Source of the DNA: Caldivirga maquilingensis IC-167
GTDB lineage: Archaea > Thermoproteota > Thermoprotei > Thermoproteales > Thermocladiaceae
Direction: 5' to 3'
NCBI RefSeq assembly: GCF_000018305.1
Contig: NC_009954.1
Coordinates: 750,001-782,000 of the forward strand
Length of the DNA stretch: 32,000 bases
Shown here in pieces: positions 29,346 through 32,000 of the stretch. The notes below the pieces were generated by a model, which searched no databases, was not told where the DNA came from, and saw nothing but the letters and a program-made list of their open reading frames with translations. Made by a program: the position numbers and the translations under genes. Positions within the stretch are counted from its first letter, which is position 1. Every line of letters starts with the position of its first letter.

Positions 29346-29497
29346 AAATTTAGGGGGATTAGTTTCCTTTTAAAGTTATTAATAATCCCGAATGATTTAG
29401 TTAACTTCTCTCAAAATACGGAACACTGTTAAACATAGAGTTAATGCTCATAAATTTTAAAATAATATTAATGAAGGGGCAAGCAGGGTTAGTTTGA

Positions 29498-30097
29498 TTA
29501 TTCTATGTATATTCCTGTTGTTTGTATTTTGTGTTTTATGCTTTCCCTCTCCTCCTCTGGGTATTGGTTTATGTAGTTTATTATTCTTGCCTTGTCTAAT
29601 TCTATTCCTGTCCTTGGGTCTATTATTTTCTCCGCTAGCCTCTCTAGGAATTCCTCAGCCTCATCAGTGGCCTCCCTAGCCTTGAGTACTATTAATGCCT
29701 CAATCCTAATACCCTTGAAGACGCTGCCATTAACACTGAAGCTTAATGAGTCATTAATTATTGCCTCAGGTATGTAGACGTCCAGTAGATTCTCCATTAA
29801 ATCAACCCTAACAACCTCACCATTAACAACAACCTCATAATACATTCCACCAAAGGCATTGAAGCCGTAATCCCAATCAAACTCCCTAGCAATACCCTCA
29901 AAGAACTCAGCATCAGTTAAAGTACTCTTATTAGTTAGGAATAAGTCAACATCATGAACAACCCAATCAACACCATAGGCAAGTGGAAGAATCAAACTAC
30001 CAACAACAACAAAACCAACACCCCTCCCACCCAACACACCACCAACCCTAAGCAAAGCCAATGAATAAACCCCAACACCCACAAAAACCCAAAACAA
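29498..30097 (-). CDS. Pol-beta-superfamily nucleotidyltransferase-like protein
   Basis: The block GVGFVVVGSLILPLAYGVDWVVHDVDLFL fits the hG[GS]-x(9-13)-DxD nucleotidyltransferase core. The C-terminal half is helical. There is no in-frame ATG near the 5' end, so the start is TTG 30097 or GTG 30082. TATA TTAATAAT lies 23-30 nt upstream. Confidence 0.6.
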   Translation of the reverse strand: MFWVFVGVGVYSLALLRVGGVLGGRGVGFVVVGSLILPLAYGVDWVVHDVDLFLTNKSTLTDAEFFEGIAREFDWDYGFNAFGGMYYEVVVNGEVVRVDLMENLLDVYIPEAIINDSLSFSVNGSVFKGIRIEALIVLKAREATDEAEEFLERLAEKIIDPRTGIELDKARIINYINQYPEEERESIKHKIQTTGIYIE

Positions 30098-30146
30098 AAA
30101 ACCTTAATCAACCTAACTGATTATTAACCACCTTCTAATCATTTTT

Positions 30147-30308
30147 CTTTCTAATCCCTTTTGGGATTTACGATTCCCTATGGAAAACTTCATGATGAGA
30201 ATCCAGGAGCACTTTCTAATCCCTTTTGGGATTTACTCCTCGGTGGCTGCTGCAGTCTACCTTATTGCGAATAAGAAGGAGCACTTTCTAATCCCTTTTG
30301 GGATTTAC
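30147..30308 (-). CRISPR. mini-CRISPR array: 3 identical 25-nt repeats and 2 spacers
   Basis: The plus-strand repeat CTTTCTAATCCCTTTTGGGATTTAC occurs at 30147-30171, 30212-30236 and 30284-30308. Spacers are 40 and 47 nt. On the minus strand the repeat reads GTAAATCCCAAAAGGGATTAGAAAG, with the GAAAG 3' end typical of crenarchaeal repeats and an internal 6-bp hairpin AATCCC/GGGATT. The AT-rich leader lies on the 30309+ side. Confidence 0.8.
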
Positions 30309-30593
30309 TGATTTATTGGCTTTTTTAGGGTTTTTAAGTTTTACTCTACTGCCTGTTTTGTTTATCATTAGCACACACTATTCCACCATTCTGTGCTCTC
30401 ACATCCCTGTGCTGATGATGCAATGAAGCCCCCTAATGGTTGTGCTAATTGAAAGAAATGAAGAATGACAATGAAACTGTGCCGATGACAATATATAGAA
30501 TATATATTTAACTCAATGAAAGAAGATAAGAATCATAAACAAGAATAAAATTCACATACATTTGCAGGGAAATTATAAAAGGAATTGGGGAGT
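30309..30593 (-). promoter_or_regulatory. putative CRISPR leader with promoter
   Basis: This is a 285-bp AT-rich non-coding stretch abutting the first repeat in minus orientation. TATA-like CTTAAAAA lies 23-30 nt upstream of repeat 3. It also contains repeated CTGTGCT motifs and an alternating AT tract. Confidence 0.55.
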
Positions 30594-31058
30594 TTAAGGG
30601 ATGGGGGATGATGTCATTTGTTCAGGTATTGTGCTGGCTTCAACTGTGGATTTCTCCACTAGCCTATACACATATACTGTGCTTGAAATGTTTCCGTAAA
30701 CGCTCATTAGGGAGTTGACTAATTTATTAGATAATTCTATTGCAAGTATGGGTGATGTATCCCTTACACATGACTTAAACCTACCACTCAGTACTACATT
30801 GCCTTCCTCACCCACTAGGAGTAGTCCATTGAATTCATCATTGTCTAGGCTTAATGAACCACCGTATACTTCACTTATATTACCTAAGGCAAGTCTAACA
30901 GACAAGGGGGCGTTAATCATGTTGACATTATCGGCGTTAGTAATACTCCACCTCAGTATACTTGACATTACTTTACCTAACTCATCTCCCTCGCTCCTTG
31001 GTTTAACTAGTATGAATACGTCGCATCCGTTCAGGAAAACCTCCAGTTCGAAATCCAT
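30594..31058 (-). CDS. hypothetical protein (154 aa), immediately upstream of and co-oriented with the CRISPR leader
   Basis: ATG start with a TATA box TTTATTT 23-29 nt upstream. Amino-acid composition is balanced. The opposite-strand ORF (30715-31086) is S/L/P-rich, as expected for an antisense artefact. I recognise no family; the alpha/beta pattern is vaguely Roadblock/LC7-like. Confidence 0.6.
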   Translation of the reverse strand: MDFELEVFLNGCDVFILVKPRSEGDELGKVMSSILRWSITNADNVNMINAPLSVRLALGNISEVYGGSLSLDNDEFNGLLLVGEEGNVVLSGRFKSCVRDTSPILAIELSNKLVNSLMSVYGNISSTVYVYRLVEKSTVEASTIPEQMTSSPIP

Positions 31059-31190: not shown

Positions 31191-32000
31191 TTAGCCTGAT
31201 GACTTAAGCATTAACCTTATTTCTGCGAGTAAACCAATAACCTGCGTTAAGTCATCACTCCCCCTTAGTATTGCATGATGACGCATAGCAATACTGTATA
31301 TTATCCTCGGTTTCAGGTACTCGGGTGCATTAATCTTAGAGACTGTTGAAGTGACCTCCCTATGCAGTAGCCTAATTATGTAAATTGGGTCAACACCTCT
31401 ATCCCTTATCATTGATTTAAGACCCATTATAGCCTTTCCAAAGTCACCATTCAACGCCTCATATATTAAATCCCTAACCTCCTGAGGATTAATGCCGCCG
31501 AAGAGTTGATAAACGGCGTTTTCATCCACTTTTTTGTTTGTTGTGGTTGTTGTTTGTAGTGTGTTTATTGCTTTTCTCATGTCTCCTTGGCTCACCTCCC
31601 ATATTGCCTCTAACCCATCCTCAGTTACCTCTACTCCAGTTTCCTTGGCTATTTGCCTAAGCCTCTCTATTACTGCCTCCTTTGGTAGTGGGTTGAATCT
31701 GAATATTGCGCACCTGGATTGTATTGGTTCTATTATTCCGCTTATGTAGTTGGCTAGTAGTATGAATCTTGTTGTTGATGCGTACATCTCCATAATCCTC
31801 CTTAAGGCTTGCTGGGCATCACTAGTCATGTTATCAGCCTCATCAAGGATTACTAGTTTAAACGGTACTGGGCCGGTGGGTATTGTTCTAGCGAATTCCT
31901 TAACCTTCTCCCTAATAACATCAATACCCCTCTCATCACTGGCATTAAGCTCAAGAACACTACTACGCCATGAATCACCGTAAAGCTCCCTAGCCAAAGC
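31191..32000 (-). CDS. rfcS: replication factor C small subunit, C-terminal about 270 aa; the 5' end lies beyond the window
   Basis: The sequence reads ...LARELYGDSWRSSVLELNASDERGIDVIREKVKEFAR...KLVILDEADNMTSDAQQALRRIME...RFILLANYISGIIEPIQSRCAIFRF. These are the Walker B DEAD box, sensor-1 and SRC motifs of RFC-S. The frame is open to the window edge. Confidence 0.9.
   Translation of the reverse strand, partial: ALARELYGDSWRSSVLELNASDERGIDVIREKVKEFARTIPTGPVPFKLVILDEADNMTSDAQQALRRIMEMYASTTRFILLANYISGIIEPIQSRCAIFRFNPLPKEAVIERLRQIAKETGVEVTEDGLEAIWEVSQGDMRKAINTLQTTTTTNKKVDENAVYQLFGGINPQEVRDLIYEALNGDFGKAIMGLKSMIRDRGVDPIYIIRLLHREVTSTVSKINAPEYLKPRIIYSIAMRHHAILRGSDDLTQVIGLLAEIRLMLKSSG

Follow-up and report, generated by a model that had tools for sequence, protein, structure and literature searches.

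What does a CRISPR array represent when it holds just two spacers, carries a leader, and lies with no cas gene in view? The question is raised by a locus of Caldivirga maquilingensis IC-167, found in a window (by which we mean the whole 32-kb stretch of DNA analyzed) that covers positions 750001-782000 of a genome assembled as one contig (2,077,567 bp, 43% GC). Positions below are those of the window unless they are given as genome positions. An initial annotation of this window had described the locus as an orphan mini-array that might rely on cas genes elsewhere. We consider it a bona fide two-spacer CRISPR array, one of nine in this crenarchaeal genome, that is served in trans by distant Cas6 and effector complexes and has lost adaptation, and we put the probability of this explanation at roughly 0.85. 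As such, the array falls in an ordinary, already known category; its genome has long been public, and its repeat is included in a curated Rfam family. The possible footprint of a slipped duplication, discussed below, is its only mildly novel element. The locus serves well to illustrate an array that is an orphan by neighborhood and not by genome.

The repeats themselves leave little room for another classification. Three perfect 25-nt copies, reading GTAAATCCCAAAAGGGATTAGAAAG on the minus strand, recur with periods of 65 and 72 nt, as the initial annotation had claimed, and enclose spacers of the claimed lengths that sit inside the genome-wide spacer range of 39-47 nt (Table 1). Dinucleotide shuffles give an expectation of zero matches to GTAAATCCCAAAAGGGATTAGAAAG, even when three mismatches are tolerated. 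Each of the three copies matches the full 25-position model of CRISPR-DR17 (Rfam RF01328) with 42.5 bits against a gathering score of 42 and is predicted to form a hairpin of 6 bp with a 4-nt loop (-7.4 kcal/mol). The Rfam match is reported on the plus strand, which is the orientation of the Rfam model only; the location of the leader and a repeat that ends 3′ in ...GAAAG point to transcription of the minus strand. The whole genome was searched with the repeat, and 52 matches at three mismatches or fewer (the three of the studied array included) fall into nine arrays, so that eight further arrays with the same or a one-mismatch repeat accompany the one in the window. Outside this genome, the repeat has no match in IMG/VR and, with the exception of one isolated single match, was not found in 40 relatives. 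The consensus of the other arrays, GAAAATCCCAAAAGGGATTAGAAAG, differs from the studied repeat by one base, an A-to-T change at position 2 (GAAAAT to GTAAAT) that all three studied copies carry. Because new repeats copy the first repeat and all three show the change, this pattern suggests that both spacers were acquired after the variant had arisen in the first repeat. In the simplest history, the array would then have begun with a leader and one GTAAAT repeat, to which spacer 2 and afterward spacer 1 were added.

Beyond the last complete repeat lies a degenerate partial copy that the initial annotation had placed at 30131-30141. It is indeed present and proves longer than described, spanning 16 nt and not 11 nt. 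It had also been taken as a sign of erosion or truncation, a reading that does not fare as well. A partial repeat directly abuts the terminal repeat of the 1700-kb array too, and the 370-kb and 1258-kb arrays have weaker ones after them; since similar partial repeats occur at these places, the one in the window is weak evidence for the erosion of a longer array.

On the other side of the array, a leader is readily recognized. The 285-bp stretch that separates repeat 1 from the next open reading frame (ORF; 30309-30593) has a GC content of 33% compared with 42% for the window, and the TATA-like element TTAAAAA lies at 30331-30337, that is, at -29 to -23 from repeat 1, which bears out the AT-rich leader and TATA-like box of the initial annotation. 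The sequence TAAAAAA is also found in the leader (30321-30327). A homologous leader of about 230-240 nt that reaches the first repeat precedes all nine arrays, with TTAAAAA invariant among them. The studied leader shares 93% identity with the leaders at 1258 kb and 1611 kb, compared with 85-88% for the remaining six, and the block ACTTAAAAA(C/A)CCTAAAAAAGC directly upstream of repeat 1 is essentially invariant across the nine. A scan for sigma-70 promoters and terminators was disregarded as not applicable to an archaeon.

The leader and the sister arrays also bear on the one reading under which the locus would not be a CRISPR at all. On the plus strand, spacer 2, repeat 2, spacer 1, and repeat 1 are traversed by a 43-aa ORF (30180-30311) that could be imagined as a small protein gene with internal repeats. 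However, its frame is kept solely because the period of 72 nt is a multiple of 3, the eight other arrays of the same repeat have periods that break the frame, the repeats match CRISPR-DR17, and the conserved leader stands on the other side. With the periods of the other arrays, the leader side, and the Rfam match all opposed to it, a protein gene is effectively refuted, and the ORF was rejected as an artifact of the 72-nt period. The same ORF is at risk of spurious annotation as a protein by gene callers.

The next matter is which machinery could use the array. None of the ORFs scanned in the window, which were all except three at 22.9-25.6 kb and a few with 110-131 aa, is a cas gene; the scanned ORFs were either housekeeping genes or without a match. 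Those identified include PEPCK, TYW3, CobD, TatC, MoeA, homoserine dehydrogenase, CarS, an ABCE1-like ATPase, and a class II aminoacyl-tRNA synthetase. For the scanned ORFs, the earlier statement that no cas genes lie nearby is therefore confirmed. The term orphan holds in this local sense and fails at the level of the genome, where a cas cluster at 1583.7-1610.4 kb, about 803 kb from the studied array, encodes Cas6 and the effectors of two systems. A type I-A module comprises Cas7/Csa2, Cas5a, Cas3′, and Cas3′′, with Csa3 encoded as well; a type III-B module comprises Cmr6, Cmr5, Cmr4, Cas10/Cmr2, and Cmr3; and the cluster further encodes a ring-nuclease-like CARF protein, Csx1, and a NurA/HerA pair. 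Cas6 (genome 1584086-1584973) is recognized by PF10040 (48.7 bits against a cut-off of 25), no second Cas6 candidate was found elsewhere in the genome, and the reading frames of Cas6 and both effector modules are intact. The initial annotation had allowed that the locus might be a relic or a non-CRISPR repeat cluster should the genome hold neither another copy of the repeat nor cas6 or effector genes; both are present. Repeats, spacers, leader, repeat family, and cognate cas genes are all as they should be for a CRISPR array. Likewise, its supposed dependence on cas genes in trans is supported by the eight other arrays, the shared leader, and the distant cluster.

The adaptation machinery presents a different picture. 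Searches with PF01867, TIGR00287, and TIGR01573 returned no significant match to cas1 or cas2 in this 99.97%-complete single-contig genome, although control genomes were matched, and cas4 is a 108-aa C-terminal fragment. Judged by cas1 and cas2, the genome is thus not competent for adaptation. For want of these two genes and of an intact cas4, the array probably cannot grow and would persist as a frozen memory. Where cas1 and cas2 would be expected, between the divergent 1583-kb and 1588-kb arrays (genome 1583741-1588174), the cas4 fragment and cas6 are followed by a protein resembling pyridine-nucleotide-disulfide oxidoreductases, two that are membrane proteins or thioredoxin-like, and a regulator of the ArsR type. 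Searches of five congeners (G001-G005) did not detect Cas1 either, and it is present in every other sampled genus of the family. The congeners are represented by metagenome-assembled genomes that are 67-98% complete, and the fragmentation of these assemblies would be the simple explanation for the missing Cas1. In two of them, G003 and G005, arrays with at least 23 copies of a different repeat, GAGGATCTCAAAAGAGAATTGAAGG, are present, and a 3.9-kb contig of G001 carries cas6, a full-length cas4, and a 96-aa Cas2-like ORF, with cas1 not in view.

From these observations we infer the following course of events for the array. By homology, the TATA-like element of the leader would direct transcription to start a few bases before repeat 1 on the minus strand, and the single Cas6 of the genome would cut the precursor transcript within each repeat, leaving a predicted 8-9-nt 5′ handle of the form ...UUAGAAAG. 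The two resulting CRISPR RNAs (crRNAs) would then enter, in trans, both the type I-A Cascade/Cas3 and the type III-B Cmr complexes of the distant cluster, a step that again draws on homology, here to other multi-array Crenarchaeota (PMC4390879, PMC4041471). Whether the locus is instead a dead relic, real in origin and drifting neutrally since an adaptation-competent past, no longer transcribed or used, deserves consideration here. The loss of cas1 and cas2 and the truncation of cas4 would fit such a fate, as would the presence of just two spacers, neither with a detectable target, the duplicated DUF2204 cassette that abuts the trailer, and the congener G003, in which no array stands beside the homologue of the adjacent 154-aa ORF. 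Yet all three repeats are identical, the leader retains an invariant promoter-like block and is 93% identical to leaders of larger arrays, and Cas6 and both effector modules keep intact frames; interference, moreover, survives the loss of adaptation. We accordingly regard a dead relic as unlikely and prefer an array that would still serve interference, as one of nine that make up a frozen repertoire in a genome with interference retained and adaptation lost.

What the two spacers are directed against was a question raised by the initial annotation, and searches were run against phage, viral, metagenome, class, and host sequences without finding a target. With blastn, INPHARED phages gave nothing, or noise at E = 7, for either spacer. 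In IMG/VR, exact 20-mers of both spacers had zero matches, as did patterns with a wildcard at the third base (in each of the three phases with spacer 1 and in a single phase with spacer 2) and the 16-mer seed that spacer 2 shares with another spacer. A 20-nt degenerate seed of spacer 2 found 12 matches in JGI metagenomes, none of which extends past the seed. No target of either spacer was found at three mismatches or fewer in 119 genomes of the same class, and the host genome yielded only matches of 13-16 nt, the best of them to another spacer. That best match is informative in its own right. The final 16 nt of spacer 2 (30172-30187), TTTTCCATAGGGAATC, recur without a mismatch and on the same strand in spacer 7 of the 1588-kb array (genome 1588957-1588972), for which we estimate a chance expectation of about 4e-4 across all spacer pairs. 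Because of these 16 common nucleotides, the comparison suggests that the two arrays may have sampled related invaders, which would favor an origin in defense. The reverse complement of both spacers reads GATTCCCT-ATG-GAA-AA..., as if the same upstream and start-codon motif of two genes in some element were represented.

The host matches also touch on whether the locus could be a regulatory element derived from a CRISPR, of the CreA type or scaRNA-like, with crRNA-like RNAs that would target host genes by partial pairing and not serve defense against invaders. In favor of this, the array is tiny, the cas genes are far off, and nucleotides 1-15 of spacer 1 match genome positions 324153-324167 exactly. 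This 15-nt match is at chance level, however (E = 0.056), and the other matches of 13-14 nt are scattered; the best self-matches, at 15-16 nt, are thus either expected by chance or to another spacer. The locus carries the standard leader of the defense arrays and has no cas gene near it, and the Cre-type elements known to us sit inside cas operons. A regulatory role is therefore very improbable. Returning to the two-spacer defense array, two results weigh against it. Its presumed processing enzyme, Cas6, scores under the cut-off of NCBIfam TIGR01877 (29.4 bits against 58.65), and no protospacer was found for either spacer in the collections searched. To our knowledge, viruses of this genus have hardly been sampled, and the literature searched held nothing specific on CRISPR in this organism.

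A finer detail of the spacers calls for an explanation of its own. They had been described as unrelated, and this is accurate from nucleotide 8 onward: read on the minus strand, both begin with TGCTCCT, after which identity falls abruptly to random. The 42 distinct spacers of the genome form 861 pairs, and among these TGCTCCT is the only common prefix longer than 4 nt, falling on the one adjacent pair of this array. Spacer 1 stands at the top of the 39-47-nt range, and without the prefix it would be 40 nt long, which is among the commonest lengths (47 = 40 + 7). The unique prefix of an adjacent pair, the abrupt end of identity, and the matching arithmetic of lengths together are why we entertain a slipped duplication. 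On this reading, to which we give nearly even odds, the shared prefix would be the fossil of a mis-measured integration that duplicated 32 bp (the 25-nt repeat plus TGCTCCT) in place of 25 bp. The leader-distal cut would have fallen 7 bp inside the old first spacer, such that the new spacer appears to start with the first 7 nt of the old one. Aberrant duplications of this nature have been documented experimentally. In the type I-B system of Haloarcula hispanica, mis-measured duplications of 31-33 bp carry one or more bases from just past the repeat over into its new copy (PMC4872114), and in the type I-E system of Escherichia coli they are likewise known at a scale of 1-3 bp (PMC5039180). The likeness is that the new upstream repeat gains bases from the start of the old first spacer and neighboring spacers come to share a prefix. 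In contrast to those cases of 1-3 bp, which were observed in the laboratory and provoked by repeat mutations, the putative slip described here would amount to 7 bp and concern a natural array, its repeat wild-type and its context type I-A, as read from one junction.

The size of the slip counts against this explanation, as the overshoot of 7 nt exceeds the 1-3 nt seen experimentally, and so do the two other occurrences of 47-nt spacers in the genome, which show no shared prefix. An alternative is that the prefix stems from a short motif recurring at the start of both protospacers, or from homologous sites in two related invaders. Internal motifs are in fact common to other spacer pairs (the 16 nt of spacer 2 and the 1588-kb spacer, 12-13 nt elsewhere), and more than half of the genome's spacers start with T, so the 5′ end is compositionally biased. 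A recurrent motif would nonetheless have to produce the only prefix longer than 4 nt among the 861 pairs exactly on this adjacent pair, with no similarity after nucleotide 7, and would leave the extra 7 nt of spacer 1 aside, while a slip accounts for the spacer length too. We hold the recurrent motif to be somewhat less likely than the slip. Should a slip be the correct explanation, it would have taken place at the last acquisition, before cas1 and cas2 were lost, and the real protospacer of spacer 1 would correspond to its last 40 nt only. The type I-A-associated array would then preserve a rare in vivo record of such ruler slippage in the wild type, a natural footprint of imprecise repeat duplication.

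Table 1. Coordinates of the studied array and its surroundings (window positions) and the nine arrays of the genome (genome positions, kb).
Feature	Position	Strand	Remarks
DUF2204 nucleotidyltransferase gene cassette, 622 bp	29497-30118 (ORF 29498-30097)	-	PF09970, E = 1.6e-67
Degenerate partial repeat AAAAATGATTAGAAGG, 16 nt	30131-30146	-	13/16 bases equal to the 3′ part of the repeat; abuts repeat 3 with no spacer between
CRISPR repeat 3 (terminal)	30147-30171	-	exact match; Rfam CRISPR-DR17
Spacer 2, 40 nt	30172-30211	-	starts with TGCTCCT (30205-30211); last 16 nt TTTTCCATAGGGAATC
CRISPR repeat 2	30212-30236	-	exact match; Rfam CRISPR-DR17
Spacer 1 (newest), 47 nt	30237-30283	-	first 7 nt TGCTCCT at 30277-30283
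CRISPR repeat 1 (leader-proximal)	30284-30308	-	exact match; Rfam CRISPR-DR17; predicted hairpin
Conserved CRISPR leader, 242 nt	30309-30550	-	33% GC; aligned to the leaders of all nine arrays
154-aa ORF	30594-31058	-	directly upstream of the leader; no Pfam match
Array	232 kb		6 repeats
Array	288 kb		4 repeats
Array	370 kb		3 repeats, exactly the same GTAAAT variant
Array (under study)	780 kb		3 repeats
Array	1258 kb		10 repeats
Array	1583 kb		5 repeats and one isolated copy
Array	1588 kb		12 repeats
Array	1611 kb		7 repeats, two of them the GTAAAT variant
Array	1700 kb		4 repeats

Some features of the other arrays merit description. The 1700-kb array (genome 1700150-1700374) repeats the leader and the first three spacers of the 1583-kb array (1583088-1583382), with its third spacer 5 nt shorter than the counterpart (41 compared with 46 nt). 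It is a segmental duplication of part of the 1583-kb array, and because of this repetition of three spacers it is apparent that units of leader and array are copied within the genome. In the 1588-kb array, the adjacent spacers 8 and 9 (1588976-1589111) have the same final 6 nt, ATCACT, and its spacer 8 has 12 nt in common with spacer 7 of the 1258-kb array.

The immediate neighbors of the studied array differ from those first named. The initial annotation had given rfcS and an oxidoreductase as the flanks; the true neighbors are the 154-aa ORF and the DUF2204 gene, with rfcS and the GFO/IDH/MocA oxidoreductase gene next out. The DUF2204 cassette is not part of the CRISPR; it bounds the trailer and ends 12 nt before the partial repeat. 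The segment (genome 779497-780118), the whole gene included, is 100% identical to genome positions 527575-528196, and compared with congeners high identity is found at the ends of the cassette only. The cassette may have been recently copied or be mobile. Synteny in G001 and G004 is uninformative, their contigs ending at, or no more than about 30 nt before, the start of the cassette. On the leader side, the homologue of the 154-aa ORF in G003 is 55% identical and lies next to rfcS, with an unrelated 421-aa ORF 61 nt on. No leader or array stands beside it there, and the surrounding gene order is widely different; in this congener the ORF is not linked to CRISPR. In the RFC small-subunit gene itself, 628 nt of the 5′ (N-terminal) part, from 31524 to the end of the window at 32000 and on to genome position 782151, are 99.8% identical to genome positions 964318-964945 in a second RFC-small gene, while the 3′ third differs. 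This pattern is suggestive of a recent event between the paralogues, either a partial duplication or gene conversion.

Placed among known systems, the locus finds its closest counterparts in other Crenarchaeota with several arrays, where it is routine for a distant cas cluster to serve small dispersed arrays in trans. In Thermoproteus tenax and Pyrobaculum, dispersed arrays number 5-7. In the Sulfolobales, several dispersed arrays with a common repeat and leader are combined with one or a few cas cassettes (review PMC4390879), and Cas6 and crRNA loading have been described for Sulfolobus solfataricus (PMC4041471). The studied array resembles these systems in its repeat, of the 24-25-nt kind ending in ...GAAAG, its spacers in the 39-47-nt range, its AT-rich conserved leader, and a putative promoter near repeat 1, as well as in the pairing of type I-A with type III-B effectors and, by analogy, in a Cas6 that would act in trans on all arrays. 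It differs in having just two spacers, in belonging to a genome that lost cas1 and cas2, and in a repeat that is predicted to fold into a hairpin of 6 bp and that has ATTAGAAAG at its end in place of ATTGAAAG. With Rfam CRISPR-DR17 it shares the full 25-position match and differs in strand, the Rfam call being on plus and the inferred transcription on minus. With orphan or isolated arrays, it has in common that no cas gene occurs among the scanned ORFs of the 32-kb window; unlike them, it resides in a genome that encodes Cas6 and effectors, and its repeat and leader are those of the arrays that lie next to cas genes.

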